Below are positions 5 through 62,799 of a stretch of DNA of 64,000 bases, in pieces. The notes below the pieces were generated by a model. The model searched no databases. It was not told the DNA's origin and saw only the letters and a list, made by a program, of their open reading frames with translations. The stretch spans positions 22,043 to 86,042 of the forward strand of contig JAHFNS010000001.1 of NCBI GenBank assembly GCA_023267215.1, given 5' to 3'. This stretch comes from Candidatus Nomurabacteria bacterium (lineage in GTDB: Bacteria; Patescibacteriota; Minisyncoccia; Phycocordibacterales; UBA9973). Numbering within the stretch: position 1 is the stretch's first letter; the number at the start of each line of letters is the position of its first letter. The position numbers and the translations under genes were made by a program.

Positions 5-1564
5 TTGAAGTCTGAAGGTATTCACACAAGTATAGCCGAGAAATTCAAAGGTGTACCAGAAGATGTTATGTCTTATATGAAAGATCTGTCTATTAAGGCA
101 TCCAGTGAATTTGCAAAAGCTCAAGGTTTAGATAGAGAGTTGCAAAAACTTAAATCTAAACCTGAAGCTGAGGCTTTGTTGGTAAATAAAACTGCAGAAG
201 AAAATTCTGAAGAATTTGGGATTGTTAATTTTAAATCTGATTTTGTGTCCAACAAAAAAGAAGTTTCTTTTGTAATGGCAAAATATTTTGTTAGTAAATA
301 TCATATTAAAACAATTGGTCAAAAAATTCGTGATATTTATATATATGAAAATGGTGTTTATGTATTAGGTCAAAATATAATAACGTCTGAAATTCAATTA
401 ATACTTGAAAAAAATGCTGACAGTAAATGCAAAAACCATATCCTAGAAATGATTAAGGATTTAACCTTAACAAATAGAGAAGATTTTAAGGTGGACAAAA
501 ATTTGATCAACTTAAATAACGGAATCTTGAATATAGAAACTGAAGAATTAATCCCTCATAGTCCAGAATATTTATTTTTTACCAAAATACCCATCAATTA
601 CAATAAAGATGCCCAATGTCCTATAATTCAAAGATTCTTAAATGAAATACTACCAGAAGAGCATGTAAAAATAGTTTTTGAATGGTTTGGGTACTGTCTT
701 TACAGGTCTTATTTTATTAAAAAAGCCATTATATTTGTTGGTGAAAGAGATACTGGAAAATCTACTCTTATAAAATTATTTGTAAGGTTAATTGGTGTTG
801 AAAATACCTCGGTGGTATCTTTACAAAAAATATCTTCTGATAAATTTGCTTCGTCTAATTTATATAATAAACATATAAATGTTTATGATGATCTTGAAGC
901 TAAGGATGTGAATGATAATGGTATGTTTAAAATAGCTACTGGTGATGGAATAATAACTGGTGAAAAAAAGTTTAATGAACAATTTCAATTTCAGAATTAT
1001 GCAAAATTAACTTTTGCTTGTAATAAAATCCCGGAAGTAAAAGATATTAATGATCCAGCATATTTTAGTCGATGGATTATTATACCGTTTACAGCACGAA
1101 TAGAAAAAGTAGATAAATCTCTTAGCGACAAAATTAATACACCAGAAGAATTATCTGGCTTATTAAACATGGCTATTCTTGGTCTATCTGAGATCTTAGC
1201 AAAACAAGATTTTAGTTATAACAAGACGCCAGATGAAATAAAAATAGAAATGTTGCTTTCTGGATCTACAATAGCTAATTTTGCATATGAATGCCTTGAG
1301 GAGGATATTGGTTCATGGGTTAGTAAGGATGATATGTATGAAGAATATTCAAAATATGCTCAATCTAATAACTTACCAGTATTTGATAAAACAATGTTAG
1401 GCAGGAAACTTCCTGATCATAGTGGATATATTATCCATGGAACAAAACTAATAGGCAAAAAACAAGTTCAAGGCTGGAAAAATGTAAAAATTAAAGGAAA
1501 AAAAGAAACTTCTGACCAAGAGGGATATGAGGGTGATTTATCAATGTTTAATACAAATAATTAA
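5..1564 (+). CDS. Phage/plasmid primase, P4-family C-terminal NTPase (D5-like), 5'-truncated by the window edge.
   Basis: Walker A motif VGERDTGKSTL followed by DDLE (Walker B-like). The ORF is open at the window start. Confidence 0.55.
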   Translation: MKSEGIHTSIAEKFKGVPEDVMSYMKDLSIKASSEFAKAQGLDRELQKLKSKPEAEALLVNKTAEENSEEFGIVNFKSDFVSNKKEVSFVMAKYFVSKYHIKTIGQKIRDIYIYENGVYVLGQNIITSEIQLILEKNADSKCKNHILEMIKDLTLTNREDFKVDKNLINLNNGILNIETEELIPHSPEYLFFTKIPINYNKDAQCPIIQRFLNEILPEEHVKIVFEWFGYCLYRSYFIKKAIIFVGERDTGKSTLIKLFVRLIGVENTSVVSLQKISSDKFASSNLYNKHINVYDDLEAKDVNDNGMFKIATGDGIITGEKKFNEQFQFQNYAKLTFACNKIPEVKDINDPAYFSRWIIIPFTARIEKVDKSLSDKINTPEELSGLLNMAILGLSEILAKQDFSYNKTPDEIKIEMLLSGSTIANFAYECLEEDIGSWVSKDDMYEEYSKYAQSNNLPVFDKTMLGRKLPDHSGYIIHGTKLIGKKQVQGWKNVKIKGKKETSDQEGYEGDLSMFNTNN

Positions 1565-2018: not shown

Positions 2019-2210
2019 ATGCTGATCCAAGACATAACAAAAGAAAAAGTACGAATTAGACGGCCTAAAAGGCTAATAGTACCAACTTTGTCTTTTCATA
2101 TGGTTGAGGGAGCATCAGAAGGGGAGATTCAGCGAAGATTAGACAGCGCTTTTAATATTCTTTTTACAGAAGTTTTTAAAAATAACAAGGGTGTGGATAA
2201 ACCCATTTGA
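2019..2210 (+). CDS. Hypothetical small protein
   Basis: 63-aa ORF within the element. Its end overlaps the next ORF by 4 nt (ATGA-type coupling). Confidence 0.2.
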   Translation: MLIQDITKEKVRIRRPKRLIVPTLSFHMVEGASEGEIQRRLDSAFNILFTEVFKNNKGVDKPI

Positions 2211-2425
2211 CAATTATAGACAACTTCGTATATACTTTATTTATGGAATTTTTAACACGAAAAGAAGTAGCAAAATATTTTAGGGTTCACGAAAGAACCG
2301 TTGATCGCTGGATTGAAAGCGGTGTTTTAAAGAGCTATAAACTTGGAGATGGTAGAACATCACTTTTACGAATACCAAAATCTGAAATTAAAAAGTTTTT
2401 AGATAAAAGTAAAAATAAAAAATGA
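2207..2425 (+). CDS. Helix-turn-helix DNA-binding protein, excisionase (Xis)/MerR-like
   Basis: The segment TRKEVAKYFRVHERTVDRWIESGVLKSYKLG is a typical excisionase-family HTH. It sits immediately upstream of the recombinase and overlaps it by 4 nt. Confidence 0.55.
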   Translation: MTIIDNFVYTLFMEFLTRKEVAKYFRVHERTVDRWIESGVLKSYKLGDGRTSLLRIPKSEIKKFLDKSKNKK

Positions 2426-4077
2426 TAGAAGAAATTAAAAAACAAAATAAACTGATAGCAGTTTATGGAAGAGTCTCAACTTCAAACCAAGAAAATGAAG
2501 GCACTATTGAAACTCAACTTTCGGCCGTAAATCAATTTGCTGAAAAGAGTGGTTTTACTATTGTTCAAAAATATATTGATAACGGGTGGAGTGGCGATTC
2601 ACTTGCTCGTCCGGCCCTAGATCAGATGCGTGGAGATGCGAAAAAGAAAATCTGGGATGCGGTTTTAATCTATGACCCTGATCGTCTGGCCCGCCGATAT
2701 TCTTATCAAGAATTAGTAATGGATGAGTTAAAAGAAGCGGGCGTTGATGTGCTTTTTGTTACTATTCCGGAAGCTAAAAATGATGAAGATAAAATAATGT
2801 ATGGAATGAGAGGTTTATTTTCTCAATATGAAAGAATGAAAATAGCTGAACGATTTAGGCTTGGCAAGGTTCGCAAGGCAAGAGAAGGGCATATTATCGT
2901 GAGCGAGGCGCCTTATGGCTATACCTTTATATTAAAGAAGGGAAAAAGAGGGGACGCGGATTTTCTTCAAGGCCATTATGTGATTAATGAATACGAGGCG
3001 CAGATAGTTAAAAATATATTTTCTTGGGTAGACGATGAAGGATTGAGACTAAGAGGGATTGTTAAAAAACTTCAAGAACTTGGTATTCCTCCTCGTAAAA
3101 GTAAAAGAGGCGTTTGGAATACAAGCACCTTGAGTACTCTGTTAAGAAATAGAACTTATATTGGCGAAGGACACTATGGAGCGTCCTATGCCACTGTGCC
3201 AGTGAATCCAATTAAAAAAGAAGGTTACAGGAAAATTAAAAAAACTAGCCGAAGAATGAAACCAGAAAATGAATGGATCATAATAAAAACACCTAAAATT
3301 TTGGATAAAGATTTATTTGATAGAGTTGGGCAAAAGTTAAAAACAAATTTTCTATTGTCTTCTAGAAACACTAAGAATGAATATCTTTTGGCTGGTAAGA
3401 TTTGGTGTAATTGTGGTAAAAGGCGAGCCGGCGAGGGTCCACAAAGAGGAAAGCATTTATACTATCGCTGTACTGATCGAATTAAAAGTTTTCCTTTAGA
3501 ACATAAATGTAAAGAGAAGGGTTTAAATGCAAAGATATTAGATCCCCTTGTTTGGCAAGGACTTGTGAATCTTATGAGTTCTCCGAATCTATTGGTTAAA
3601 CAAATGGAAAGCTGGTTTAGTAGCCAGAATAAAGGAACCAGTACTTCAATAATAAATATTAAGGAAACAAAAAAGGAAATTGTGAAGCTAGAAGATCAAG
3701 TGAGTCGTTACGCCAAAGCTTATGGAGTTGGAACAATTAATCTTGATCAGCTTAAAGAATATACAAACCCTATTAAAGAAAGTATATCTTTATTTAATAA
3801 TCAGATAACTAAGGCAGAATCAGAGAGCGGACAAACATACGAGGCATTATCACCGAAATTAAATGAGATAGAAAACCTTGCGAAAGCATCAGAAGGACTC
3901 CGTAACTTGAAATTTGAGGCAAAAAAGGCGATAGTTAGAGATATTATAGATAGAGTGGTCGGAACAAGAGAAAATTTACAAGTTTATGGATATATTCCAA
4001 TAGTATCAAATATCAATGTCTTCTCTTTCAATCGGAATTGTGGGGTTGCCAAATGTCGGGAAATCAACGCTATTTAA
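2422..4077 (+). CDS. Large serine recombinase (integrase)
   Basis: N-terminal resolvase catalytic domain (AVYGRVSTSNQ with the catalytic Ser, then DNGWSGDSLARP), recombinase domain, Cys-rich zinc ribbon (CNCGKR...YYRCTD) and C-terminal coiled coil. GC content is higher than flanking genes. Confidence 0.85.
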   Translation: MIEEIKKQNKLIAVYGRVSTSNQENEGTIETQLSAVNQFAEKSGFTIVQKYIDNGWSGDSLARPALDQMRGDAKKKIWDAVLIYDPDRLARRYSYQELVMDELKEAGVDVLFVTIPEAKNDEDKIMYGMRGLFSQYERMKIAERFRLGKVRKAREGHIIVSEAPYGYTFILKKGKRGDADFLQGHYVINEYEAQIVKNIFSWVDDEGLRLRGIVKKLQELGIPPRKSKRGVWNTSTLSTLLRNRTYIGEGHYGASYATVPVNPIKKEGYRKIKKTSRRMKPENEWIIIKTPKILDKDLFDRVGQKLKTNFLLSSRNTKNEYLLAGKIWCNCGKRRAGEGPQRGKHLYYRCTDRIKSFPLEHKCKEKGLNAKILDPLVWQGLVNLMSSPNLLVKQMESWFSSQNKGTSTSIINIKETKKEIVKLEDQVSRYAKAYGVGTINLDQLKEYTNPIKESISLFNNQITKAESESGQTYEALSPKLNEIENLAKASEGLRNLKFEAKKAIVRDIIDRVVGTRENLQVYGYIPIVSNINVFSFNRNCGVAKCREINAI

Positions 4078-6130: not shown

Positions 6131-7069
6131 ATGAAAAACAAAATGAAAAAAGAAATTAAAATTTTTTGTGCAAAAGATTGGTCCGATTATGAAATGCTCG
6201 ATACTGGGGATGGGGAGAAGTTGGAACGTTTTGGTCCACATGTTTTTGTGCGTCCTTATGAAGATGCTGTTTGGAAAAAAACTTTGAGTGAAAAAGAATG
6301 GGGGAAAGCAGATGGAAAATTCTGGAGTTCTAAAGTTGGGGCGAAAGCTGGATGGAAATTTACCAAGGGGAACCCTTGGGGAAACTCTCTTAAGGGTTCC
6401 CCTTTAAAATGGGAGATGGAATACAAGGGTATAAAATTTTTAGCTTCGCCTACGCCTTTTCGACATTTGAGTTTTTTTCCTGAACAGGCAAGTCATTGGG
6501 ATTTTATCGAAAAAGAAATTTCCCGAGGGTTATCCTCGGGAAGAAGAATTAAATTTCTGAATTTATTTGGTTATACGGGTGTTGCGAGTTTATTTGCTTT
6601 GCGAGCTGGTGCGGAAGTGACACACATAGATGCTTCCAAACAAACATTGGAACAAGTAAAAGAAAATCAAAAGCTCAATGGTTTTGAAAAAATGCCTATG
6701 CGAATTATCTTGGATGATGTTATGAAATTCTTGGAACGTGAAATAAAAAGAGGAAATAAATATGACGCTGTGATAATGGATCCACCAAAATTTGGACGTG
6801 GTCCAAAAGGGGAAATTTGGAAAATAGAAAAAGACTTACCGAAACTTCTTGGAGAAGTACGAAAAGTTTTGAGTGACAAACCTCTTTTTGTAATATTAAA
6901 TTCTTATGCCATAGATTCATCTTCGCTTTCACTTGGTTATGCGCTAGAAGATGCCATGAAGGGGCTCAAAGGGGAAGTCACATCTGGCGAGCTTTGTTTA
7001 CTAGAAAAATCTAACGGCAGAAATATCTCTCTTTCAAATACAGCCATTTGGGAAAATTATGACAATTAA
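6131..7069 (+). CDS. Class I SAM-dependent RNA methyltransferase (RlmI/YccW-like)
   Basis: FGYTGVASLFALRAGA (motif I) and DAVIMDPPKF (DPPKF motif IV), as in RlmI-family methyltransferases. Confidence 0.6.
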   Translation: MKNKMKKEIKIFCAKDWSDYEMLDTGDGEKLERFGPHVFVRPYEDAVWKKTLSEKEWGKADGKFWSSKVGAKAGWKFTKGNPWGNSLKGSPLKWEMEYKGIKFLASPTPFRHLSFFPEQASHWDFIEKEISRGLSSGRRIKFLNLFGYTGVASLFALRAGAEVTHIDASKQTLEQVKENQKLNGFEKMPMRIILDDVMKFLEREIKRGNKYDAVIMDPPKFGRGPKGEIWKIEKDLPKLLGEVRKVLSDKPLFVILNSYAIDSSSLSLGYALEDAMKGLKGEVTSGELCLLEKSNGRNISLSNTAIWENYDN

Positions 7070-7751: not shown

Positions 7752-10175
7752 GTGAGAATAAAAATTTGTATGAAGAATTACGATCATAAAAAAATTGAAA
7801 AGAAAATCCAAAAAGAGTGGGAAAAGAAAAAGATATATTCTGCTTCCGATAAATCTAAAAAGCCAAAATTTTATTCTTTAATCGAATTTCCATATCCATC
7901 TGGTGATGGACTTCACATTGGACATCCTAGACCATATACTGCAATGGATATTATTTCTCGTAAACGTAGAATGGAAGGATTTAACGTCCTTTTTCCTATT
8001 GGTTGGGATGCCTTTGGTCTACCGACTGAAAATTATGCAATAAAAACTGGTAAAAAGCCGGCAGTTGTTACAAAGAAAAATATAATTACATTTACTCGAC
8101 AAATAAAATCACTCGGTATTTCTTTTGATTGGTCTAGGGAAATTAATACAACTGACCCAGCTTATTACAAGTGGACGCAATGGATATTTTTGCAGTTCTA
8201 TAAAAAAGGTTTAGCTTATAAGGCCAAATCTTATATTAACTGGTGTCCAAAGGATAAGATTGGTCTTGCTAATGAAGAAGCGATAGGTGGTGTCTGTGAG
8301 CGTTGTGGAAGTGCTACAGAAAAGCGTGAAAAAGAGCAATGGATGCTTGCTATCACAAAATATGCAGACAGGCTCGATAAAGACTTAGACTTGGTGGATT
8401 ATCCAGAGAGAGTAAAATCACAACAAAGAAATTGGATAGGGAAATCAGAGGGAAGTGAATTGGAATTTAGCTTTTGTCCGTGTGCAAAAGAAAATTTACC
8501 AAATCTAAAAGAAGGAATAAAAGTGTTTACTACTCGTGCAGATACTCTTTTTGGTGTTACGTATGTTGTACTTGCTCCAGAACATGAATTGATTTCAAAA
8601 ATTCAATCAAGAATTACAAATTGGGATGAAGTTGAAAAATATATAAAAGATACAAAGAAAAAATCGGAGATGGAAAGGATGGCAGAAGATAAAACGAAAA
8701 CTGGGGTAGAGCTTAAAGGTGTGAAAGCAATCAATCCTGCTAATAATGAAGAAGTGCCAATTTGGATTGCAGATTATGTCTTAGTAGAATACGGCACAGG
8801 GGCTGTGATGGCAGTGCCAATGCACGACAAAAGGGATAGAGATTTTTCAGAAAAATACAATTTGCCCATCATAGATAGGCCACTTGTTGATGCGAAAGAA
8901 ATTACACAGAAGGTAGGAGGAAAAATTGTTACAAAATTTAAATTACGAGATTGGGTTTTTTCACGTCAGAGATATTGGGGTGAACCTATACCATTAGTCA
9001 ATTGTGAAAAGTGTGGACTCGTACCGATAGGAGAAAAAGATTTGCCAGTAAAGTTGCCGGAAGTAAAAAGTTATACACCGACAGATAATGGAGAATCACC
9101 ACTTGCGGGTATATCAAAATGGGTAAATACAAAATGTCCAAAATGTGGTGGTCCTGCTAAAAGAGAAACAGATACAATGCCAAACTGGGCAGGTAGCTCT
9201 TGGTATTATTTGAGGTATACAGATCCCAAAAATAGTAAAGAATTTGCAAGTAAAAAGAATTTAAAATATTGGACGCCGGTAGATTGGTACAATGGTGGAA
9301 TGGAACACACAACTCTCCACTTACTGTACTCACGTTTTTGGCATAAATTTTTATATGATTTGAAACTTGTGCCGACATCTGAACCTTACAAAAAAAGAAC
9401 TTCTCATGGAATGATATTAGGTGAAGGTGGAGTAAAAATGTCTAAGTCTTTAGGGAATGTTATAAACCCAGATGATATTGTAAAAACATATGGGGCAGAT
9501 ACATTACGTGTTTATGAAATGTTTATAGGTCCATTTGAAGAGGCTGCTCAATGGAGTACTGAGAGTATCATCGGCTCAAGGAGATTTATAGAAAAAGTTT
9601 GGAGGATAGGGGAGAAGATTTCAAAAAAGCTGCTTTCTCACGGCTCGCACTCGAACTTGAATGTGGTTAACGAATCTAATATTGCGTATGCCGAAAAAAG
9701 TTCTGCTTCGCAATCTCCTGTTTTAAAACTTTTACACAAAACAATCAAAAAAGTTTCAGAAGATATTGAAGATATGCGTTTTAATACTGCGATTTCTGCG
9801 ATGATGATACTTGCGACGGAGATGGAAAAAATTAACTTTATTGATTTAGAAGATTATAAAAAATTCTTACAAATTTTAAATCCATTTGCTCCGCACATTG
9901 CAGAATATATTTGGTTTGAGTTAGGGGAGAAGAAAAGTATAAACTTGTCTAGTTGGCCGAAATGGGATGAAAGTTTAATTAAGGATAAGGAAGTAAAAAT
10001 TGCTGTGCAGATAAATGGTAAAGTTAGAACTGAAATAACGATCCAAATGGATGAAAAAGAAGAGGAAGTAAAAAAGAAGGCTTTCGCTAACCAAATTGTT
10101 TTAAAATATATAGGACAACAAGAACCTAAAAAGATAATTTATGTCAAGAATAGAGTTATTAACATATTGAATTAA
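7752..10175 (+). CDS. leuS: Leucyl-tRNA synthetase
   Basis: HIGH-region (PYPSGDGLHIGHP), KMSKS, and C-terminal anticodon-binding region FNTAISAMM. The true start may be the internal Met at ~7770. Confidence 0.9.
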   Translation: MRIKICMKNYDHKKIEKKIQKEWEKKKIYSASDKSKKPKFYSLIEFPYPSGDGLHIGHPRPYTAMDIISRKRRMEGFNVLFPIGWDAFGLPTENYAIKTGKKPAVVTKKNIITFTRQIKSLGISFDWSREINTTDPAYYKWTQWIFLQFYKKGLAYKAKSYINWCPKDKIGLANEEAIGGVCERCGSATEKREKEQWMLAITKYADRLDKDLDLVDYPERVKSQQRNWIGKSEGSELEFSFCPCAKENLPNLKEGIKVFTTRADTLFGVTYVVLAPEHELISKIQSRITNWDEVEKYIKDTKKKSEMERMAEDKTKTGVELKGVKAINPANNEEVPIWIADYVLVEYGTGAVMAVPMHDKRDRDFSEKYNLPIIDRPLVDAKEITQKVGGKIVTKFKLRDWVFSRQRYWGEPIPLVNCEKCGLVPIGEKDLPVKLPEVKSYTPTDNGESPLAGISKWVNTKCPKCGGPAKRETDTMPNWAGSSWYYLRYTDPKNSKEFASKKNLKYWTPVDWYNGGMEHTTLHLLYSRFWHKFLYDLKLVPTSEPYKKRTSHGMILGEGGVKMSKSLGNVINPDDIVKTYGADTLRVYEMFIGPFEEAAQWSTESIIGSRRFIEKVWRIGEKISKKLLSHGSHSNLNVVNESNIAYAEKSSASQSPVLKLLHKTIKKVSEDIEDMRFNTAISAMMILATEMEKINFIDLEDYKKFLQILNPFAPHIAEYIWFELGEKKSINLSSWPKWDESLIKDKEVKIAVQINGKVRTEITIQMDEKEEEVKKKAFANQIVLKYIGQQEPKKIIYVKNRVINILN
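9639..9693 (+). repeat. 55-bp repeat core (about 87% identical to the core at 44895..44949), translated in-frame within leuS
   Basis: CACGGCTCGCACTCGAACTTGAATGTGGTTAACGAATCTAATATTGCGTATGCCG aligned to CACGGCTCGCACTCCAACCTGATAGTGGTTTACGAAATTAATATTGCGTATGCCG. Encodes part of ...SHGSHSNLNVVNESNIAYAEK... in the variable linker of LeuS. Confidence 0.8.
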
Positions 10176-14178: not shown

Positions 14179-16071
14179 ATGGATTTACAATATATACGAA
14201 ATTTCAGCATCATAGCTCATATAGACCATGGTAAGAGCACTTTGGCAGATAGAATGCTTGAAATAACACATACCATAGAGGCTCGTAAAATGCGTGACCA
14301 ATTTTTGGATAATATGGAGCTTGAACGAGAAAGGGGTATAACTATTAAGATGCAACCCGTACGTATGGAATTTACCCCAAATTCCCCGAAGCCCAGCTTA
14401 GGAGAAGTTTCCTTAAGCTGGGCTTCGGGGGAAGGCGAAACTTTTATTTTAAACCTTATAGACACGCCAGGCCACATAGACTTCTCTTATGAAGTATCTC
14501 GTGCCTTAAAGGCCGTAGAAGGCTCTATATTGCTCGTAGATGCAACTCAGGGTGTCCAAGCACAAACATTGACTACTTTAGAAATGGCTCGAGAAAGCGG
14601 GCTTGTTCTCATCCCTGTTTTATCAAAAATAGATTCACCATTAGCTCGAGTAGATGAAATAAAAATGGAAGTGGCAGTTTTGCTTGATATAAATCCTGAT
14701 ACAATTTTAGAAGTATCTGGAAAAACAGGGGAAGGTGTAGAGAATTTATTAGAAGAAATAATAAAAAAAATACCGCCACCTTCTTTGGATGAAAAATTAA
14801 TTCCTGATACTTTGCAAAATGTACGAGGAGAAGAAAGTTGTCGGGCTTTAGTTTTTGACTTTAAATATGATAGTCATAGAGGAGTTATTGTCTATGTTCG
14901 TCTTTTCAACGGTTCAATAAAAAAAGGGGACAATCTTCTTTTTTCTGTTTCGGGAGAAAGATTTATCGCACTAGAAGTCGGAATATTCTCACCAGAAGAG
15001 AATCCAAAAAGTTCAATTGGAATTGGAGAAATAGGTTATATTATAACCGGAATTAAAAAGCCTGGTATTGCTTCTGTCGGAGACACCATCACTTTTAATA
15101 AAAAACCACTACCTGCTTTACCCGGATATATGAATCCAAAACCGGTTGTCTGGGCTTCGGTTTATCCAGAAGATGCAGATGATTTTCCAAATTTAAAACT
15201 TGCTTTAAGTCGTTTAAAACTTTCTGATTCTGCTTTTTCTTACGAAGAAGAATCTTCTGGTACGCTTGGTAAAGGTTTTCGTTGTGGTTTTTTAGGAATG
15301 CTGCATCTTGAAATAATTACAGAACGCTTAAAAAGAGAATTTAATTTAAATTTGGTGGTGACGATGCCTTCTATTACCTATAAAGTAATTTTGAGAAATA
15401 ACAAAGAGTTGATGATATATTCTCCTCATTTTTTTCCAGATGATAGTCAAATCATAAAAGTTTATGAACCCTGGGTGTCAGTCAAAGTTATTACTCCACA
15501 AATGTATACCAGTGTATTAATGCCTTTTCTTTTTGACCATGAAGCAGAAGTACATATGACTGATAGCTTTGGAGACAACCGTTCAGTAATAAATCTAGAT
15601 ATGCCCTTGCGTGAATTAATGCGTAATTTTTTCGATGATTTAAAAAGTATTACTTCTGGTTATGCCTCCATTTCTTACGAAATTGGTAAATATAGAGATG
15701 CAGATGTTGTTCGATTAGATATCTTAGTGGCGGATGAATCTATGCCAGCTTTCTGTAGAGTTGTCTCAAGACGTAGGGTAGAAGAAGAAGCCCACAACCA
15801 AGTTGAAAAATTAAAAAAAATTATTCCACGACAACAATTTCCTTTTAAAATACAAGGTAAAGCATTAGGAAGAATTATTGCCTCCGAATCTGTCTCTGCT
15901 TTTCGAAAAGATGTTTTGATGCATGGTAGTAAAGTTGTTGGTGGAGGAGATGTTAGTCGAAAAAAGAAACTTCTAGAAAAGCAAAAAAGAGGAAAAGCTA
16001 GAATGAAAGAAAACGCAAAAGTAAACATTACTCAAGATGTTTTTCTAAAAATGATGCGTAGAGGGGAATAG
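14179..16071 (+). CDS. lepA: Elongation factor 4 (LepA)
   Basis: NFSIIAHIDHGKSTLADR, DTPGHIDF, and the LepA-specific C-terminal domain. Contains an in-frame 47-bp palindrome insertion at 14384..14430. Confidence 0.9.
   Translation: MDLQYIRNFSIIAHIDHGKSTLADRMLEITHTIEARKMRDQFLDNMELERERGITIKMQPVRMEFTPNSPKPSLGEVSLSWASGEGETFILNLIDTPGHIDFSYEVSRALKAVEGSILLVDATQGVQAQTLTTLEMARESGLVLIPVLSKIDSPLARVDEIKMEVAVLLDINPDTILEVSGKTGEGVENLLEEIIKKIPPPSLDEKLIPDTLQNVRGEESCRALVFDFKYDSHRGVIVYVRLFNGSIKKGDNLLFSVSGERFIALEVGIFSPEENPKSSIGIGEIGYIITGIKKPGIASVGDTITFNKKPLPALPGYMNPKPVVWASVYPEDADDFPNLKLALSRLKLSDSAFSYEEESSGTLGKGFRCGFLGMLHLEIITERLKREFNLNLVVTMPSITYKVILRNNKELMIYSPHFFPDDSQIIKVYEPWVSVKVITPQMYTSVLMPFLFDHEAEVHMTDSFGDNRSVINLDMPLRELMRNFFDDLKSITSGYASISYEIGKYRDADVVRLDILVADESMPAFCRVVSRRRVEEEAHNQVEKLKKIIPRQQFPFKIQGKALGRIIASESVSAFRKDVLMHGSKVVGGGDVSRKKKLLEKQKRGKARMKENAKVNITQDVFLKMMRRGE
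14384..14430 (+). repeat. 47-bp perfect-arm palindrome inside lepA (in-frame)
   Basis: CCCCGAAGCCCAGCTTA - 13-nt centre (GGAGAAGTTTCCT) - TAAGCTGGGCTTCGGGG. Confidence 0.9.
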
Positions 16072-17539: not shown

Positions 17540-18856
17540 ATGGAATTACACAGTATCAAAAATTTTAATGAGCTTGCAACGACAGAAAATCGTAAAATAG
17601 CACTAGAGATAATTGAAGCTGGTATGGATGCCATAAATACAGAAAAGGTGATAAAATCATCAGTCATTTTGAAGAGTGATGTTTTGTCGATAGGAGATAA
17701 AGATTTTGATTTATCAAAATATAAAAATATAAAAGTCATAGGTTTCGGCAAATCTTCACCTGATGCAGCTCTAGTGCTAGAAGATGTACTGGGGTCCAAG
17801 ATTACGAAAGGAGCTGTCGTCGGCCTTAAAAAAGTTCCGTGTAGATATATAGAGACATTCATTGGTACACATCCCAGACCTTCGAGAGAGAACATAGAAG
17901 CCGGGAATAAAATATTTGAATTATTGGATGGATCCACTGCTCAGGATTTGATCATTGTTTTAGTTTCTGGTGGAGGTTCAGCATTGCTTTGCTATGGGGA
18001 GGGTGAATGCACAGAAGGTGCGAAGCTATATGATAACTTTTTATCTCTCGGTAAGACTATATCTGAAATGAATACAGTTAGAAAACATCTGTCTCTTTTC
18101 AAAGGAGGAGGATTGGCAAAAATAGCGTATCCAGCCACGGTCATAGGACTTATTTTTTCTGATGTTCCAGGGGGCGATTTTGCTAGTGTGGCTTCTGGTC
18201 CGACTTACAAAGATGAAACGAGTATAAAAGATGCTCAAAAGATAATAATAGAAAATAATTTAGGAAATTTTGATCTGATTGAAACACCTAAAGAAGATAA
18301 ATATTTTGAAAATGTTTTTAACTTTGTAGTTGTGTCGAATGAAATCGCAATAAACAAAATGGTAGAGAAAGCAAAGGAATTTAATTTTGAAACAAATATC
18401 GTTTCGACTGAATTATACGATGAGACGAACATAGCGCTTGATAAAATATTCCAAACGATGCCCCAAAGACGGTCTTCGGGGAATTCCCCGAAGACCGTCT
18501 TTGGGGTGGGTTCTGTTGTTCTAGCTGCTGGAGAGCCAAGTATTACTGTGACAAAAAGCGGGGGAAAGGGAGGGAGAAATTTACACATGGGACTTTTGTC
18601 TATAGAGAAAAATTTAATAGACGATGATTCAGTATTTATATCTTTTGCATCTGATGGTATGGACAATAGTGATGCAGCTGGGACAGTAGTCGATAAAAAT
18701 ACAGTGGAGAAAATAAATAAATTAGGTATAAATGTAAAAGATGCACTAGAAAATTTTGATTCGTATCCAGTATTTGAAAAGTCAGGCGATATCATAATGA
18801 CAGGTCCCACCGGAGCAAACGTGTCAGACTTGATGTTGCTTTTAAAGAGAAAATAA
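17540..18856 (+). CDS. Glycerate 2-kinase (MOFRL family)
   Basis: LVSGGGSALL and the overall MOFRL layout. Contains an in-frame 46-bp perfect palindrome at 18461..18506. Confidence 0.7.
   Translation: MELHSIKNFNELATTENRKIALEIIEAGMDAINTEKVIKSSVILKSDVLSIGDKDFDLSKYKNIKVIGFGKSSPDAALVLEDVLGSKITKGAVVGLKKVPCRYIETFIGTHPRPSRENIEAGNKIFELLDGSTAQDLIIVLVSGGGSALLCYGEGECTEGAKLYDNFLSLGKTISEMNTVRKHLSLFKGGGLAKIAYPATVIGLIFSDVPGGDFASVASGPTYKDETSIKDAQKIIIENNLGNFDLIETPKEDKYFENVFNFVVVSNEIAINKMVEKAKEFNFETNIVSTELYDETNIALDKIFQTMPQRRSSGNSPKTVFGVGSVVLAAGEPSITVTKSGGKGGRNLHMGLLSIEKNLIDDDSVFISFASDGMDNSDAAGTVVDKNTVEKINKLGINVKDALENFDSYPVFEKSGDIIMTGPTGANVSDLMLLLKRK
18461..18506 (+). repeat. 46-bp perfect palindrome inside the glycerate kinase gene (in-frame)
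   Basis: CCCCAAAGACGGTCTTCGGGG-AATT-CCCCGAAGACCGTCTTTGGGG. Confidence 0.9.
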
Positions 18857-24521: not shown

Positions 24522-24561
24522 GAATTCCCTCATATACGCCATGGCTGATATGGGGGAATTT
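24522..24561. repeat. 40-bp GC-rich palindromic element (GGGGAATT/AATTCCC family), intergenic
   Basis: GAATTCCCTCATAT-ACGCCATGGCTG-ATATGGGGGAATT: 13-bp arms with one mismatch and a CCATGG centre. Confidence 0.55.
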
Positions 24562-27979: not shown

Positions 27980-28051
27980 GCCTAGGTAGCTCAGTAGTAG
28001 AGCGTTCCCCTGAAGAGGGACAGGTCGGGTGTGCGATCCACCCCCTAGGCA
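27980..28051 (+). tRNA. tRNA-Phe (anticodon GAA) with an unusual T-loop (G at position 55)
   Basis: Perfect acceptor (GCCTAGG/CCTAGGC), D stem (GCTC/GAGC) and T stem (GGGTG/CACCC). Anticodon loop CTGAAGA. T-loop TGCGATC instead of TTCGAWT. Confidence 0.6.
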
Positions 28052-28053: not shown

Positions 28054-28107
28054 TGAAAAATAAAATAAACTTAACTCAACTAAAGAAATATAATTAGATA
28101 TAATTAT

Positions 28108-28410
28108 ATGTCTTGTTATGTTTATATGATAAAAAGCATAAAAGATAACAGTTATTATGTTGGTATTTCAGAAGATCCTATTAGGAGATTGAAGGAACAT
28201 AATAGCGGTAAATTAAAAAGAACAGCTAAAAATAAACCACATAAGATTGTATTTATAAAAGAACACTTAGATTATAAAAAGGCGAGAATACACGAGATTT
28301 GGCTTAAGAAGAAAAATAAAGAATATAAGGACAAAGTGGCTGATTTCGATGCGAAAAATAAAAATTATGTAGAGCATTCCCCCTTGCCCCGCCCATTACG
28401 GGCGGGGTGA
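28108..28410 (+). CDS. GIY-YIG nuclease family protein (YhbQ/UPF0213-like)
   Basis: CYVYMIKSIKDNSYYVGISEDPIRRLKEHNSG parallels E. coli YhbQ [31 protein letters not shown]: GIY...YIG spacing and conserved Arg/Glu/Asn. Confidence 0.8.
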   Translation: MSCYVYMIKSIKDNSYYVGISEDPIRRLKEHNSGKLKRTAKNKPHKIVFIKEHLDYKKARIHEIWLKKKNKEYKDKVADFDAKNKNYVEHSPLPRPLRAG

Positions 28411-32011: not shown

Positions 32012-32497
32012 GTGATAGTAAGTGATTTAAAACAATCAATTCGACGAAAGGTCGAGGAGGTAAAAATGGCTACTGTAAATAACGAAAAGACAGAGAATGG
32101 TTTTCTGAAAAAAAGAGAAATTCATAATATTGATTTCTCAATTTCGGCTGTTGTTTGTTTTTTAGATCAGGTTATCCAACCTATCCAAGGAAAAAGAATT
32201 AAATTAATTAGCGGAGGATTTAATGCTTGTATAATAAACGGATGTACTTTAAAAGGTGGTGCATTAAATTTTCTCATAGAGATAAAACCGTTTTCTTGGG
32301 AAAAAGGGTATTCTGTTATTATCAGGCTAATGAAAATTGATAGTAGCTTTAATTGGTGGCTATGTTATATTGGTTTTCGTTTCATCGATAAATGCGATGA
32401 AACTTTTAGAGTAGAACATCCAGTGTGTTATATTAATTTTTCGAAAGTTCTCGTAGAAGAATGCAGAACTTTTTTGACCAATATCTTAAAGAATTAA
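32012..32497 (+). CDS. Hypothetical Cys-rich protein
   Basis: 161-aa ORF divergent from valS. No motif recognised. Confidence 0.25.
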   Translation: MIVSDLKQSIRRKVEEVKMATVNNEKTENGFLKKREIHNIDFSISAVVCFLDQVIQPIQGKRIKLISGGFNACIINGCTLKGGALNFLIEIKPFSWEKGYSVIIRLMKIDSSFNWWLCYIGFRFIDKCDETFRVEHPVCYINFSKVLVEECRTFLTNILKN

Positions 32498-33723
32498 TTT
32501 TTTCCTAGTTTTAAGTTTCCATCGGCCCGTATTTCTTTTTTTGGAATGCGGGCTTTATTCTTTATATAATTTAAATATCCAGCTACGCCTATCATTATAG
32601 AATTATCTCCAGTTAATGCTTTTTCGGGGAAAAGTAATGTTGTCTTTTTATCTATCGTTTTTTCCATTTGTCTTCTTAAGTGTTCGTTGCAAGAGACTCC
32701 ACCGGCTACTATTATTGTTTTTACTTTAAATTTTTCTGCTGCCTTTGTTGTTTTGTGAATGAGAACATCAACTACAGCATTTTCAAATTCTAGTGCTATT
32801 TTTTGTTTTATTTCTTCTTTTTCTAAGATATTTGGATTTTCTTTTTTTAAATCACGTATCAAATACAAAACGGCAGTTTTTAATCCAGAAAAAGAAAAAT
32901 CAAAATTTTTACTATACATCATAGGGCGGGGAAGAACTGCAGAAAAATCAATCTTTTTGGGGTCGCTGTCTCCGCTTACTAGCGGAGCGCTGCCTCTCGG
33001 CCCGTCGGCCTGCGAGACACCCCATAAAGATTGTTTTTCTGCAGTTCTGACTTCCTCTGCTAACCTTGAAATTTCTGGTCCACCAGGATATTTTAGACCC
33101 ATCATTCTCGCTACCTTATCATAGGCTTCTCCAGCGGCATCATCTAATGTTTGTCCCAATATTTTATATTGTATCCAATTTTTTGAGAGAATGAGTTCAG
33201 TGTGTCCACCTGAGACGAGTAAAGATAATGTAGGGAATTTCATTTTTGGAATTTTAAAACTTCCTTTGTTTTTAGCAAAAACAGAAAATATATGTCCCTC
33301 CATATGATTCACTGGTACGAGAGAGATGTTCCATTTTTTTGCGAGCTCTTTCGCGAAAACTATTCCACTCCAAAGTGAAGGCTCTAGTCCAGGGCCATAT
33401 GTGACGGTTATTAAATCAATTCCAGCTGGATTAGTATCAAAGGCAAGGCCTTTTTGAATTCTTAAGGCCTTGCCTTTTAAAAAAGCCTGGCTTTTGGAGA
33501 ATTTCTTTAAAACTTCTTCTAAAAGTATAGGTAAATTTTTTATGTGTTCTCGTTTTGCAAGGGCAGGGAAGACTCCGCCATATTCTGCGTGTATTTTTAT
33601 TTGTGAATTAGCAGCATTGGCCAATATCTTAAAAGAGGCATTATTATTTTTAATGTCTCCTTTGGCTTCCAATATACTTATTGCTGTGTCGTCGCAACTT
33701 GTTTCAATACTTAAAATTTTCAT
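32494..33723 (-). CDS. tsaD: tRNA N6-adenosine threonylcarbamoyltransferase TsaD, carrying an in-frame repeat-element insertion
   Basis: MKILSIETSCDDTAISI, HMEGH, YPGGP...LPRPM, FDFSFSGLKT. 409 aa versus ~340 typical. The extra segment corresponds to the element at 32933..33048. Confidence 0.85.
   Translation of the reverse strand: MKILSIETSCDDTAISILEAKGDIKNNNASFKILANAANSQIKIHAEYGGVFPALAKREHIKNLPILLEEVLKKFSKSQAFLKGKALRIQKGLAFDTNPAGIDLITVTYGPGLEPSLWSGIVFAKELAKKWNISLVPVNHMEGHIFSVFAKNKGSFKIPKMKFPTLSLLVSGGHTELILSKNWIQYKILGQTLDDAAGEAYDKVARMMGLKYPGGPEISRLAEEVRTAEKQSLWGVSQADGPRGSAPLVSGDSDPKKIDFSAVLPRPMMYSKNFDFSFSGLKTAVLYLIRDLKKENPNILEKEEIKQKIALEFENAVVDVLIHKTTKAAEKFKVKTIIVAGGVSCNEHLRRQMEKTIDKKTTLLFPEKALTGDNSIMIGVAGYLNYIKNKARIPKKEIRADGNLKLGKN
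32933..33048. repeat. ~116-bp inverted-repeat element (26-30-bp AT-rich arms, GC-rich core) inserted in-frame in tsaD
   Basis: AGAACTGCAGAAAAATCAATCTTTTTGGGG - GC-rich core (CTCCGCTTACTAGCGGAG, GGCCCGTCGGCC) - CCCCATAAAGATTGTTTTTCTGCAGTTCT. Arms match with 2 mismatches. Confidence 0.8.
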
Positions 33724-56023: not shown

Positions 56024-57091
56024 CTAATCTTCCAATTTAGGTTTTTCGATAGATAGGGTAGAGAGTTCAGGTGAAGTGCCAGCAATGCGAAGGACATCTT
56101 TATCTATCTTTTTCAGTTCTTTATTTGATGCATTGTAGTGATTCACGACAGTGCCCAATGCATTACCAAGTTTGTCGTGATATTCATCAAAAGATTTTAG
56201 GTGTTTTCCTAGGTCTTCCACTTTTTTGATTATCTCTTTTGCTGATTCTTCTATTTTAAGAGCCTTGAGTCCTTGCAACACAGTTTGTAAATATGCCAAA
56301 AAAGAAGTTGGCGAAGTGATGATGACTTTATATTTTCCGGCTGCTCTTTGAATCAAATTTTCATTCTCGCTGTCGTTTATATTTGTAGCTCCGACTTTGT
56401 TTGTGAGTAGGTCATAATAAATAGCTTCATGTGGAATAAACATAAAAGCGAAATCTGTCGTGCCTTTACTTGGTTGAATATATTTTGCAGTCTCTGTGAT
56501 TCTATTTTTGAGGTCGTTTACGAAAATAGTTTCCAATTTTTTCTTTTCAGCTATGTTTTGTTCTTCAGCCATCTTATTATAATTTTCAAGAGAGAATTTA
56601 GAATCCACAGGAATTATTTTATCTTTCACGAAAACCACAGCGTCCACGATAGTGCCATCAGGAAAAGGGTATTGCATTTGATAAGATCCGGGAGGAAGAA
56701 CATTTTTTAGAACTGTTTCTAAATAATATTCACCAAGGATTCCACGTTGTTTTGGATTTTTAAGAACATCTTGCAAGCTTTGAAGTTGATCAGCAAAAGA
56801 GATGACCTGTTTATTTGTTTCGTCTAATCTCGTGAGTCTTTCTGTCACATCACGAATTATTTCATTTGATTGAGAAGAATGAAACTTCAAACTTTCTTGC
56901 ACTTGTTTATGTGATTCGCCAAGCTTGTTGTCTACTGTGCGGGAGAGTTCGTTTAATTGAGTTAATATCAAATTTAAACCTGTATCGTTTTGAGTTTGTT
57001 TTTCTTTTTTACCAAATAAAAAATAGGCCAAAAAGAACATACAGATGCTTCCAATTAAAATTCCTATTACTATCAATAATGTATTTTCCAT
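56024..57091 (-). CDS. rmuC: DNA recombination protein RmuC
   Basis: N-terminal TM helix, long coiled coil, and C-terminal RmuC nuclease-like region (DFAFMFIPHEAIYYD). Confidence 0.75.
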   Translation of the reverse strand: MENTLLIVIGILIGSICMFFLAYFLFGKKEKQTQNDTGLNLILTQLNELSRTVDNKLGESHKQVQESLKFHSSQSNEIIRDVTERLTRLDETNKQVISFADQLQSLQDVLKNPKQRGILGEYYLETVLKNVLPPGSYQMQYPFPDGTIVDAVVFVKDKIIPVDSKFSLENYNKMAEEQNIAEKKKLETIFVNDLKNRITETAKYIQPSKGTTDFAFMFIPHEAIYYDLLTNKVGATNINDSENENLIQRAAGKYKVIITSPTSFLAYLQTVLQGLKALKIEESAKEIIKKVEDLGKHLKSFDEYHDKLGNALGTVVNHYNASNKELKKIDKDVLRIAGTSPELSTLSIEKPKLED

Positions 57092-57853
57092 TTATGTTAA
57101 TTTATTTAAATAATGTTTTAATGTATAAATCCAATCTTCATCTCCAGGATTTTCTCTCTCTTTTGTATCCAAAAACCATTGTAGATAGCCACGATCTATT
57201 TTCGAAACATCTTCCACTGTCTTACCAGCGTGTTTGCCGAAAGAGAATGAATGCATTAGTGAAGGCCTAGAAGATATTTCTATCATTTTTTGAATCACTG
57301 GATCTTCTCCCTCCTGCGAAGGGGGAGTACCCTTTAGGGTGAGGGGGTCTTTTTGTGTTTCTTCTTGAATTTTTTTATACAGTCTTTCAAATAATTTTTC
57401 TAACACTAAAACATCGCCGAGTGCATCGTGTGCAGTAGCATCTATTTCTATCTCCAAAAAGTAACGAAGAAATTGGAGCTTATGCTGAGGGAGTTTGTTT
57501 TCTTTGTCTAACGCACGAGCTACACGTAATGTGCAAATGATATTTTTTGGCTTAATTCCTTCTTTTGTTATTATTGCTAAATCAAATTTTGCATTATGTG
57601 CAACTAATATTGAGTTTTTATCTTCAAAAAGAGTTTTTATCTTTTTGAATTCAGGACTTTTCTGAAAAGGCATTTTGTCTTCTACCATTTTGTTTGTGAT
57701 GTGGTGCACAGCAGAAGCTTCTGCTGGGATCTTTATTTCTGGTTTATATAATTCACAAAATATTTCATTATTAGTTTTATAAGCTAATTGACACAAGAAA
57801 TCTGTACTGTCTACTCCTGTCGTTTCCGTATCAAAAAATATAATCTTTTGCAT
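57092..57853 (-). CDS. DnaQ-like (DEDDh) 3'-5' exonuclease
   Basis: FFDTETTGVD (Exo I), HNAKFDL (Exo II) and HDALGD (Exo III). The C-terminal extension contains GC-rich hairpins at 57305..57348. Confidence 0.7.
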   Translation of the reverse strand: MQKIIFFDTETTGVDSTDFLCQLAYKTNNEIFCELYKPEIKIPAEASAVHHITNKMVEDKMPFQKSPEFKKIKTLFEDKNSILVAHNAKFDLAIITKEGIKPKNIICTLRVARALDKENKLPQHKLQFLRYFLEIEIDATAHDALGDVLVLEKLFERLYKKIQEETQKDPLTLKGTPPSQEGEDPVIQKMIEISSRPSLMHSFSFGKHAGKTVEDVSKIDRGYLQWFLDTKERENPGDEDWIYTLKHYLNKLT

Positions 57854-61353: not shown

Positions 61354-62799
61354 TTGTATAATAAACACATGGCTAAAAAATACTATCCTACAATCGGGCT
61401 CGAAATACATGCAGAATTGAAAACGCAGACGAAAATGTTTTGTGGTTGCAAGAATAATCCTGATGAAGAGAAACCAAATGTAAACATTTGTCCTGTCTGT
61501 ATGGCACATCCTGGGACATTGCCTGTGATAAATAAAAAAGCTATTGAAAATGTTATTAAAGTTGGCTTGGCTATCGGTGGCACGATTGCAGACTTTACAG
61601 AATTTGATCGTAAAAATTATTTTTACCCAGATATTCCGAAAGGTTATCAGATTTCTCAATACAAATATCCGATAGTTTCTGGCGGGCACCTCGCAGGCTT
61701 CGACATCACTCGAGTGCATCTAGAAGAAGATACAGCAAATAACAAACACGATAGAGGGGATTTCTCATTAATTGATTTCAATCGAGCTGGCGTACCTTTG
61801 ATGGAGCTCGTGACAGAGCCAAATACTTTCGATGAGGCAGATGTCGCTGCGAAGACCACTTCGAATTTTGCAAAAGAACTTCAGCTTATCCTTTGGTATC
61901 TCGGAGTATCAGAAGCAAACATGGAAAAAGGTGAAATGCGTGTGGAAGCAAATATTTCTGTTTCAGAGGATAAAAATAAATTAGGTACGAAAGTTGAGGT
62001 GAAAAATTTGAACTCTTTCAAGAGTGTTGAAAAAGCAATTAAGTTTGAATTGGATAGAATGATAGAGCTTCACGAGAGTGGAAAGGGAGAAGAAATAGTG
62101 CAGGAGACTCGGGGCTGGGATGAAAGCAAACAGAAAACATTCTCTCAGAGAAAGAAGGAGTCTAGTCATGATTATAGATATTTTCCAGAGCCAGATTTAC
62201 CAAAAATGTTTTTGCACGAAGCATTTCCATTAGAAAAAATTAAAAAAGAACTAGGGGAGTTGCCTGTCGAAAAACGTACAAGATATAAGAAAGATTTTGG
62301 AATAAAAGATGAGGATATAGAAAGCTATATTAATGATAAAGAATTAGGTGTTTGGTTTGAAGAAGTTGCAAAAATGTTAGATAGTGGAGATAAAACAAAA
62401 ATAGCATCAAATTACATAACTTCTGACTATATGGGTCTCAAGAAAAACAACTTGGAGGCCTTGCCTCCAAGTGCTAGAAATTTTGCAGAACTTATAAATT
62501 TAGTGGCAGATAATAAAATTTCATCTCGCGTAGCGAAGGATATTTTAGCGATGATTATTTTGAAAGACGAGTCACCACTTCAAATTGCGACAGAAAAAAA
62601 TTTATTACAAAAAAATGATGAAGGATCAATAAAGATAATTGTAGAAAAAATAATCAATGAAAATCCTGACGTAGTCTCTATATATAAAGGAGGTAAAGAA
62701 AATGCTATAATGTCTCTAGTTGGTAAAGTTATAAAAGAAAGTAATGGCAGCGCAAATCCTAAAATGGTTATTGAAATGCTAAAAAATTTATTAATTTAA
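61354..62799 (+). CDS. gatB: Asp/Glu-tRNA(Asn/Gln) amidotransferase subunit B
   Basis: YYPTIGLEIHAELKTQTKMFCGCKN...CPVCMAHPGTLP. The start is probably at MAKKYY (61369). Confidence 0.9.
   Translation: MYNKHMAKKYYPTIGLEIHAELKTQTKMFCGCKNNPDEEKPNVNICPVCMAHPGTLPVINKKAIENVIKVGLAIGGTIADFTEFDRKNYFYPDIPKGYQISQYKYPIVSGGHLAGFDITRVHLEEDTANNKHDRGDFSLIDFNRAGVPLMELVTEPNTFDEADVAAKTTSNFAKELQLILWYLGVSEANMEKGEMRVEANISVSEDKNKLGTKVEVKNLNSFKSVEKAIKFELDRMIELHESGKGEEIVQETRGWDESKQKTFSQRKKESSHDYRYFPEPDLPKMFLHEAFPLEKIKKELGELPVEKRTRYKKDFGIKDEDIESYINDKELGVWFEEVAKMLDSGDKTKIASNYITSDYMGLKKNNLEALPPSARNFAELINLVADNKISSRVAKDILAMIILKDESPLQIATEKNLLQKNDEGSIKIIVEKIINENPDVVSIYKGGKENAIMSLVGKVIKESNGSANPKMVIEMLKNLLI

Follow-up and report, generated by a model that had tools for sequence, protein, structure and literature searches.

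We analysed a 64,000-nucleotide stretch of the genome of a Candidatus Nomurabacteria bacterium, an ultra-small inhabitant of groundwater (contig JAHFNS010000001.1, positions 22,043 to 86,042; 'the window') whose essential lepA gene, encoding the translation factor EF4, carries a GC-rich palindrome. Comparing filled and empty sites across related genomes, we find that this palindrome probably represents a single copy of a short non-coding DNA repeat, dispersed and 51 nucleotides (nt) long, which we name E51, and we consider it quite likely that E51 is part of a wider set of GC-rich hairpins in the AT-rich genomes of Paceibacterota (candidate phyla radiation). Genomes of candidate-phyla-radiation bacteria are generally regarded as minimal, streamlined and poor in mobile elements. 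Our observations suggest that Paceibacterota harbour several families of GC-rich hairpins, which settle time and again in the same permissive loops of essential proteins (LepA, MurD, GatB, TsaD, glycerate kinase and an rRNA methyltransferase), which would provide a mechanistic source for many unexplained lineage-specific inserts in these proteins.

The lepA insert and its copies in other genes

The host gene and the parts of the insert are as follows, with coordinates counted from the first letter of the window.

14179..16071, + strand: lepA (EF4), 630 amino acids (aa); Pfam GTP_EFTU, GTP_EFTU_D2, EFG_III, EFG_C and LepA_C
14382..14432, no strand assigned: E51 copy in lepA, a 51-nt nested palindrome equal to 17 codons, delimited by comparison of copies and of the empty site
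14384..14400, + strand: left perfect arm, CCCCGAAGCCCAGCTTA
14401..14413, + strand: degenerate centre, consensus GGGGAAATTCCCC from the comparison of copies
14414..14430, + strand: right perfect arm, TAAGCTGGGCTTCGGGG

The two 17-nt arms are exact reverse complements of each other around a 13-nt centre, GGAGAAGTTTCCT. A first-pass annotation made from the letters of the window had called this a perfect 47-bp palindrome; its arms, coordinates and centre are exact, and strictly the segment is a perfect inverted repeat with a spacer. The true unit is longer than the 47-nt segment first described. The empty lepA site of the related locus L005 reads GAATATGCTTTAAA^AGGACAAAAT where the window reads GAATTTACCCCAAA[51 nt]AGGCGAAACT (in longer form, GAATATGCTTTAAA^AGGACAAAATTATGTT and GAATTTACCCCAAA[TTCCCC...GGGGGA]AGGCGAAACTTTTATT), and because filled and empty DNA together fix the junction, the inserted DNA is the 51 nt at 14382-14432, running TTCCCC...GGGG(G)A. 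It enters lepA behind the second base of a codon, and no target-site duplication was found at the lepA or gatB junctions when filled and empty sites were compared. The centre of the window copy is unpaired through four substitutions from the consensus, three of which are GC-to-AT transitions, as would be expected of decay under AT pressure. As the annotation had also noted, the segment is GC-rich within an AT-rich gene, with a GC content of 0.60 compared to 0.35 in the remainder of lepA and 0.33 in the window.

The inverted repeat is not due to chance, on the combined evidence of simulation, folding and rank within the window. Across 30 second-order Markov simulations of the window, perfect arms separated by 20 nt or less reached at most 13 nt. 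The RNA fold of the segment reaches -43.2 kcal/mol (z = -6.3), a value attained by 0 of 200 shuffles, and the minimum free energy of 60-nt windows at the site is -42.5, compared to a mean of -7.0 (s.d. 4.0) across the whole stretch. This places the lepA site second among all 60-nt windows, behind only the palindrome at 18461-18506 (-47.2). Rfam gave no match at gathering thresholds, and its E-value mode returned generic miRNA-precursor-like hairpins far under the cut-offs.

The window is 33% GC and carries ordinary housekeeping genes (murJ, lepA, ftsB/divIC, ldh, glycerate kinase, enolase, PPDK, tsaD, ftsZ/ftsA, the mraZ/mraW-PBP-mur operon, gatB and several tRNA synthetases), and its closest LepA proteins are annotated as Candidatus Paceibacterota, Patescibacteria or Nomurabacteria. 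In LepA, ERERGITIK...VRMEF precedes the insert and TFILNLIDTPGH follows it. Of the 120 closest LepA proteins, about 75% have a bare segment of 16 residues from ERERGITIK to LNLIDTPGH, compared to 33 residues in the window, and the sites of the nearest outgroups (P0004 and P0005; L089 and L090) are empty, so that the alignment proposed in the first-pass annotation bears out a lineage-specific segment. The roughly 16 added residues it had counted also hold: the gene has 17 codons more than the nearest orthologs that lack the insert, and alignment to Thermus thermophilus EF4 (PDB 5imq and 4w2e) leaves a gap of 16 residues between VRVTY and RAKDGEEYVFHLIDTPGH.

This alignment places the insert at the turn of a G-domain beta-hairpin between switch I and the DTPGH motif. 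Mapping onto EF4 structures, suggested as a check of a surface-loop location, thus places it between two G-domain beta-strands and speaks to surface exposure only indirectly. An AlphaFold2 model of LepA built from 26 close homologs was of too poor a quality (mean predicted local distance difference test score 55, with residues 1-105 below 50) and was set aside as proof of exposure; its strand-coil-strand arrangement (strand 61-65, coil 66-88, strand 89-95) is the sole feature that agrees with the PDB alignment. Since the open reading frame (ORF) is intact, the length is a multiple of three and stops are absent, we take the insert to be translated, as a Pro/Ser/Gly-rich loop extension, NSPKPSLGEVSLSWASG. 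As most orthologs do without it and its peptide varies, it is presumably tolerated by the loop and not needed by LepA.

E51 is also found elsewhere. A scan of metagenomes with a pattern of both arms, in which covarying positions were left free, returned four Hainich groundwater contigs with E51 (two samples, 8-15x coverage). Using L-numbers for related loci, the repeat lies in-frame in murD of L084 and L085, two species whose MurD proteins are 79-82% identical, and in gatB of L086 and L087; together with lepA (window and L001), these are three unrelated essential genes. The further copies for which the annotation had proposed a search therefore exist, in murD and gatB of related groundwater Paceibacterota. 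The murD and gatB copies match the window copy at 46 of 51 positions. In gatB the repeat forms a perfect palindrome of 25+1+25, TTCCCCGAAGCCCAGCTTAGGGGAAATTCCCCTAAGCTGGGCTTCGGGGAA, and the window's own gatB is empty at that site.

61747..61752, + strand: empty E51 site in the window's gatB (61354..62799), AAA CAC ^ GAT AGA

L087 gatB is filled exactly at this position (AAA CAT [51 nt] GAA GAA), and the two genes have 82% aa identity over aligned codons (76% by tblastn). As the 51-mer occurs in murD and gatB while the window's gatB is empty, E51 is a dispersed, insertion-polymorphic repeat and not a structure specific to lepA.

What is conserved is the DNA and not the peptide, because E51 is read in two different frames: as SPKPSLGE..LSWASG in lepA, that is, SPKPSLGE(F/V)(P/S)LSWASG, and as FPEAQLRGNSPKLGFGE in murD and gatB (predicted insert-derived peptides SPKPSLGEVSLSWASG and FPEAQLRGNSPKLGFGE). 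The third frame contains TAG, and only open frames are occupied. Two of the three frames are open in either orientation which, with a unit of exactly 17 codons, leaves the host gene intact.

Similarity among E51 copies is maintained, or renewed, at a level far above that of neutral sites. The murD copies of L084 and L085 are identical at 51 of 51 positions, compared to an identity of 0.56 at fourfold sites of their host genes; the window's lepA copy matches the L087 gatB copy at 46 of 51 (fourfold-site identity 0.49) and the L001 lepA copy at 40 of 51 (0.44). The 51-mer would be an easily searched marker of recent DNA exchange between uncultured species. Within the 17-bp core, the sole difference between the window and L001 is a reciprocal change of CA..TG to TG..CA, which preserves two base pairs. 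There is no sign of selection for an mRNA hairpin, as sense-strand mismatches among 53 intragenic GC-rich palindromes comprise 8 G:T and 11 A:C, which leaves no G:U excess in this set.

Searches with the peptides and scans of viral contigs found nothing. Concatenated E51 peptides gave seven word-sharing candidates in a 5.8-billion-protein database, none of them scored, the query being too short for significance; a 30-aa antisense translation had no matches among 1.84 billion representatives, again at a length too short for significance and uninformative on spread; and viral contigs scanned for the E51 arm and the glycerate-kinase half had none. A purine-rich target motif was considered and rejected: the right flanks (AGGCGAA, GAAGAAG and AGAAAGA) come from four sites in purine-rich coding strands, and the left flanks are unconserved.

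The contig that carries L001 (JAMPXW010000004.1) is titled 'Burkholderiales bacterium', yet it is 33% GC, encodes a LepA 88-90% identical to that of the window and is syntenic with it over murJ-lepA-divIC-ldh-glycerate kinase. It is almost certainly a mis-binned Paceibacterota contig.

Hairpin modules and repeatedly filled sites

Each 25-nt half of E51 is itself a hairpin, composed of a TTCCCC foot, a 5-bp variable stem, a 3-nt loop, the 5 complementary positions and a GGGGAA foot, so that the 51-mer can fold as one long or two short hairpins. Position 7:19 is usually unpaired (7 of 12 halves). The halves have an 11-bp stem; in their alignment, 88.6% of cells are paired and pairs 8-11 covary, a descriptive and not independent count, as the hairpins were picked because they fold. 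The features with this architecture in the window, scored with R1, a covariance model of the 25-nt half, are listed below.

14382..14406, no strand assigned: left 25-nt half of E51 (TTCCCC, 5 bp, 3-nt loop, 5 bp, GG(A)GAA); R1 24-25 bits, a match that is not independent as it is one base from training row E51_L, though not itself a training row
14408..14432, no strand assigned: right 25-nt half, same architecture as the left; R1 22 bits
18461..18506, no strand assigned: sister element, a perfect 46-bp palindrome, in-frame in glycerate kinase (DUF4147/MOFRL ORF 17540..18856)
24522..24558, no strand assigned: intergenic imperfect palindrome, GAATTCCC...GGGGGAATT, upstream of tRNA-Gly; weak R1 match, E = 0.085

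The window thus has two doublets of the TTCCCC/GGGGAA architecture, both intragenic, and one weak intergenic match. The sister element consists of two inverted 25-nt TTCCCC/GGGGAA halves with another 5-bp variable stem and is missing from most orthologs. Sequence shared between the lepA palindrome and these two had been claimed from the outset and is there, as CTTCGGGGAATTCCCCGAAG at 18474-18493 in the glycerate kinase gene, where the modular architecture is held in common beyond an 8-mer, and as GGGGAATT at 24552-24559 in the intergenic palindrome. Other carriers of the half module, with different stems, are the lepA insert of L081, singlets in the murJ-lepA intergenic region of L010 and L013, and a singlet inside lepA of L088 and L063. 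In 1.5 Mb from 80 related genomes, which we scanned for E51 and for hairpins, R1 picked up, besides its training members, just four loci (L006, L075, L053 and L016), and its extra matches in the window are weak; the half architecture is therefore uncommon within the wider hairpin population. A 23-nt hairpin at 6520-6542, TTCCCGAGG-GTTAT-CCTCGGGAA, in an S-adenosylmethionine (SAM) methyltransferase ORF (peptide ISRGLSSGR), also matches the half model weakly (E = 0.4), and the length of this segment varies among orthologs.

The same sites are filled by different elements. In a distance tree, the LepA sequences of the window, L081 (P0002), L001 and P0003 form a clade in which all have inserts, and the next relatives are empty. 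Fourfold-site identities (0.54 for window and L081, compared to 0.44 and 0.47) suggest that the window and L081 are the closest pair, and the L081 lepA insert is nonetheless an unrelated perfect palindrome with a 26-bp stem, at the same nucleotide position, of 51 nt and with TTCCCC/GGGGAA feet. The murD site is filled by E51 in L084 and L085, and L035 has another palindrome there. The glycerate-kinase site holds GC-rich hairpin inserts of three sequence types (window; L056; L072, L075 and L090) and, in L081, an insert that is not palindromic. Such re-use is explained in part by selection for tolerant loops, which does not account for the coincidence at the nucleotide level, with equal length.

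The third type at the glycerate-kinase site is an element of about 75 nt (L075 14324-14449, L072 14393-14506 and L090 4555-4680) with the core CTCAGGTCCTCGG...CCCTATCCCGGCCAGACC. The 22-bp stems that flank this core are wholly different among the three species and always perfectly complementary, which points either to covariation of an extreme kind or to local sequence having been duplicated in inverted form when the element inserted.

Counting hairpins of at least 12 pairs with at most one mismatch, there are 69 GC-rich palindromes in the 1.5 Mb, and 40 of the 69 lie within ORFs of at least 120 aa. Most of the long LepA-loop inserts of other lineages fold as one to four GC-rich hairpins. In the window, two further palindromes lie in-frame.

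6365..6404, no strand assigned: GC-rich palindrome, AAGGGGAACCCTT...AAGGGTTCCCCTT, in-frame in the SAM methyltransferase ORF (6131..7069); it belongs to another family and is lineage-specific
33437..33479, no strand assigned: in-frame GC-rich palindrome, AAAGGCAAGGCCTT...AAGGCCTTGCCTTT, in the tsaD ORF (32494..33723, minus strand)

The arm motif of the tsaD palindrome recurs in L013 and L035. A second tsaD insert is an island of 78% GC at 32953-33035, and both tsaD inserts, as well as the palindrome at 6365-6404, are missing from many orthologs. With these two GC-rich inserts (32953-33035 and 33437-33479), the window's TsaD has 409 aa compared to the usual 340 or so; in most Paceibacterota orthologs the second of the two sites, behind GPEISxLAE, is filled by inserts derived from hairpins, and peptides such as LASATARARGIFQQKNIRA recur among them.

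Separate from E51, an element of about 95 nt with three to four hairpins appears to represent a second mobile family that lies in-frame; it is found in tsaD of L006 (21130-21270) and in lepA of L016 (10190-10310) and L012 (2695-2805). Its DNA is about 80-85% identical between L006 tsaD and L016/L012 lepA, and its peptide reads ..LLxKEGVGGGNxKNHH..GTPPxxGGE.

Outside genes, two near-identical (one mismatch) 37-nt GC-rich palindromes, AAGGGTCCGCCTTCGCC..., lie 10 kb apart in L020 (2524-2560 and 12692-12728), which shows that such hairpins can be multi-copy within one genome. In L084, inverted hairpin copies of CCCCTCTCCAGATTACTGGCGAGGGG at 8671-8696 and 9088-9113 bracket a 139-aa ORF, resembling the terminal inverted repeats of a small element.

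Origin of the insert, rival explanations and known systems

A copy of E51 entered lepA by a clean insertion, with no target duplication, where the gene encodes the tip of the G-domain beta-hairpin behind switch I. The repeat would move at the DNA level, most likely in the form of a folded single strand on which a structure-specific enzyme acts in trans, and its palindromy would act at the DNA level and not as an mRNA signal. An enzyme that recognises single-strand structure would fit the lack of target duplication and the design of a hairpin plus constant foot. The candidate is an HUH/Y1-type transposase, as for repetitive extragenic palindromic (REP) sequences and RAYT; an alternative route would be the break-induced gene conversion that has been put forward for GC clusters of yeast mitochondria (PMC4478555). 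We regard any single route as tentative at best. As the tags and target duplications of known families are absent, the mobiliser may be new.

Several points weigh against a mobile repeat as the explanation. Its mobility is deduced from distribution, and the very high similarity among copies could stem from strong constraint on the sequence, for instance by protein binding, instead of recent spread. E51 is seen once within the 64-kb window and, among the 1.5 Mb from the 80 other species, in L001 only, which makes for a narrow family. No HUH/Y1 transposase was found among the roughly 44 window ORFs scanned with Pfam. The covariation described above was counted on hairpins chosen for folding, and the translation of the insert is deduced from its frame and the integrity of the ORF.

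A more specific reading, which we consider unlikely, is that the TTCCCC...GGGGAA elements are cassettes of an undescribed structure-specific recombination system in candidate-phyla-radiation bacteria. An enzyme would recognise the constant 6-bp feet together with the folded double hairpin, and cassettes would be inserted or swapped at an exact nucleotide position in essential genes. The reading arises from the lepA inserts of the window and L001 on the one hand and L081 on the other, which have the same site, length of 51 nt and feet with unrelated stems, from the murD inserts of L085 and L035, which place different palindromes at one site, and from identical copies in species whose neutral sites are saturated, which suggests that the elements spread between species. 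Such cassettes might serve the host, for example as signals for recombination or DNA uptake.

It is improbable that the palindrome arose de novo at a fragile site, through hairpin-primed or template-switch repair synthesis followed by quasi-palindrome correction. The arms are unlike flanking or ancestral lepA sequence, and independent repair events would not give one 51-mer in three genes, even if the L001 stem is longer and more perfect than that of the window, many lineages have different palindromes at the same two or three sites, and the glycerate-kinase stems of L072, L075 and L090 differ yet always pair, as from local templated synthesis.

An element of about 50 nt with a GC-rich hairpin, within a coding sequence of an AT-rich genome, also resembles those that never reach the protein, being excised from the mRNA or skipped by the ribosome (T4 gene 60, Magnusiomyces 'byp'). 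For E51 we find this highly improbable, as all examined intragenic copies are a multiple of three long and free of stops in the host frame, with neither a stop behind a take-off codon nor a matched take-off/landing pair; that E51 occurs only in its two open frames argues in the same direction, weakly, as there are three sites. Membership in the translational-bypass class was accordingly rejected.

Were the hairpin specific to lepA, evolved in place and needed for expression as a pause, attenuator, RNase site or mRNA stabiliser, its very stable fold, the compensatory double change in the stem between the window and L001 and its retention in a small clade of four LepA sequences would follow. The 51-mer is, however, also present in murD and gatB, in either frame and orientation, and these copies largely refute this explanation. 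In addition, about 75% of close LepA orthologs are insert-free, an unrelated palindrome occupies this position in the sister lineage L081, a sense-strand G:U bias is absent and no Rfam family matches, leaving it with very little probability.

Still less probable is an ancient extension of the LepA loop that functions as protein and was lost in most lineages. Loop inserts do occur in many Paceibacterota lineages, and types such as EGVGGGN... are common to distant LepA sequences, but insert peptides are unrelated between close relatives (window and L081), the E51 DNA is translated in another frame in other genes, and no protein constraint explains palindromy at the DNA level. Assembly errors in short-read metagenomes can yield palindromes, and an assembly or chimera artefact can nevertheless be dismissed here, as the lepA locus is identical in an independent ENA assembly (L083), an orthologous copy exists in a GenBank metagenome-assembled genome (L001) and ORFs are intact throughout, including on the four contigs from the two Hainich samples at 8-15x.

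The first-pass annotation had likened the palindrome to Rickettsia palindromic elements (RPEs). The analogy holds for behaviour (in-frame, in several genes, patchy) and not for membership (size, CGTC tag and phylum). According to PMC10969869, RPEs, like E51, are hairpin repeats that sit in-frame in unrelated housekeeping genes of a reduced, AT-rich bacterial genome, and like E51-type elements they add translated loop segments, also occur between genes and are patchy between related species. RPEs are about 100-150 bp, with each family encoding a conserved peptide (Ogata et al. 2000, via PMC10969869), whereas E51 measures 51 nt and can be read in either of two frames. One end of an RPE bears a CGTC tag (PMC3733652); the five E51 copies instead end in TTCCCC and GGGGAA, with no CGTC in or beside the element. 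The host is in Patescibacteria rather than Alphaproteobacteria, and no sequence relationship was shown.

REP sequences and their inverted dimers (REPINs) resemble E51 in the 25-nt unit, the 11-bp stem with one mismatch, the short loop and the predominance of inverted dimers, and resemble E51-type elements in forming sub-families by complementary stem changes and in having some units inside genes (PMC3733652). Different REPs occupy one site of recB in related Xanthomonas species (PMC3733652). A REP unit has stems of 5-13 bp and a short loop, and TnpA_REP/RAYT is a Y1 transposase (PMC3733652, PMC8266576). In contrast to REPs, no E51 copy has the unpaired GTAG or CGTC tag needed for RAYT cleavage; the E51 class is largely intragenic, whereas REPs are mainly extragenic and downstream of genes. 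The REP/REPIN-RAYT system has a cognate Y1 (IS200-like) transposase gene; Pfam finds no RAYT among the roughly 44 scanned ORFs of the window. REPs number tens to thousands per genome; the 64-kb window has two doublets, both intragenic, and one weak intergenic match. We found no literature report of REPs in Patescibacteria.

The yeast mitochondrial gene var1 has an optional in-frame 46-bp GC cluster, and GC clusters are thus like E51 in sometimes lying in-frame within a protein gene. Both are sporadic, GC-rich palindromes of 40-50 nt in an AT-rich genome (GC42, PMC4478555), and both have stems conserved above the synonymous rate, hairpin modules that merge or shuffle and no known dedicated transposase (PMC4478555). 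E51 agrees with this type in its GC content (0.57-0.60 compared to 0.33 for the window) and in a copy identity of 90-100%, compared to 0.44-0.56 at fourfold sites. GC42 has an AG target-site duplication (PMC4478555), whereas the E51 junctions in lepA and gatB have none. GC clusters are mostly intergenic and belong to an organellar host, whereas E51 belongs to a Paceibacterota bacterium.

Double-hairpin elements of fungal mitochondria were reportedly described by Paquin in 2000, and the 'byp' translational-bypass elements of Magnusiomyces mitochondria are said to have been described by Lang et al. in 2014. E51 is like these elements in its nested double hairpin and as a short GC-rich insert in coding sequence; 'byp' elements break the frame and must be skipped by the ribosome, whereas E51 keeps the frame open, which makes bypass unnecessary. 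Membership among miniature inverted-repeat transposable elements was rejected, as there is no target-site duplication, the whole element is palindromic and the window has no insertion-sequence (IS) transposase or parent IS.

In-frame palindromic repeats are already established elsewhere, and a repeat of this type in Patescibacteria is apparently unreported in the literature searched. Searches on intragenic palindromes in Parcubacteria, Patescibacteria and the candidate phyla radiation returned nothing relevant; their coverage was incomplete, so that this is absence of evidence only. E51 is unusual in its length of exactly 17 codons, its modular double hairpin, the cassette-like re-use of sites and its identity across species. 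It would be a third independent case of colonisation by in-frame palindromes, next to Rickettsia and yeast mitochondria, and as all three hosts are reduced and AT-rich, a common cause is indicated.

Other features of the window

At its start, the window encodes a D5-like primase/helicase (5..1564; DUF5906, D5_N, Pox_D5) and its only recombinase, a large serine recombinase (2422..4077; Resolvase, Recombinase, Zn_ribbon_recom). An integrated element, phage or plasmid-like, probably has its edge in this region (5-4077).

A tRNA-Phe(GAA) gene at 27980-28052 is followed by a 100-aa ORF for a GIY-YIG nuclease (28108..28410; Pfam E = 1e-12) and by a second copy of the tRNA-Phe 3' half (28368-28449), in which the region of the anticodon loop is replaced by the GC hairpin CCCCGCCC-ATTAC-GGGCGGGG. 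ARAGORN and Rfam make no call for this second copy within the 27980-28452 region, which looks like a small element integrated at a tRNA or a tRNA duplicate disrupted by a hairpin.

Upstream of mraZ (48033), two nested inverted repeats at 47695-48003 fold strongly and look non-coding. Their arms are 24 nt (47695-47718/47809-47832) and 22 nt (47928-47949/47982-48003), the minimum free energy of 60-nt windows falls to -27.9, and Rfam has no match to the region at its gathering threshold.

In E. coli, RmuC has been associated with keeping inversions at short inverted repeats in check. In the window, RmuC (56024..57091) adjoins an ExoX/RNase T-like exonuclease (57092..57853), and the exonuclease gene itself holds a GC-rich hairpin island at 57296-57355.

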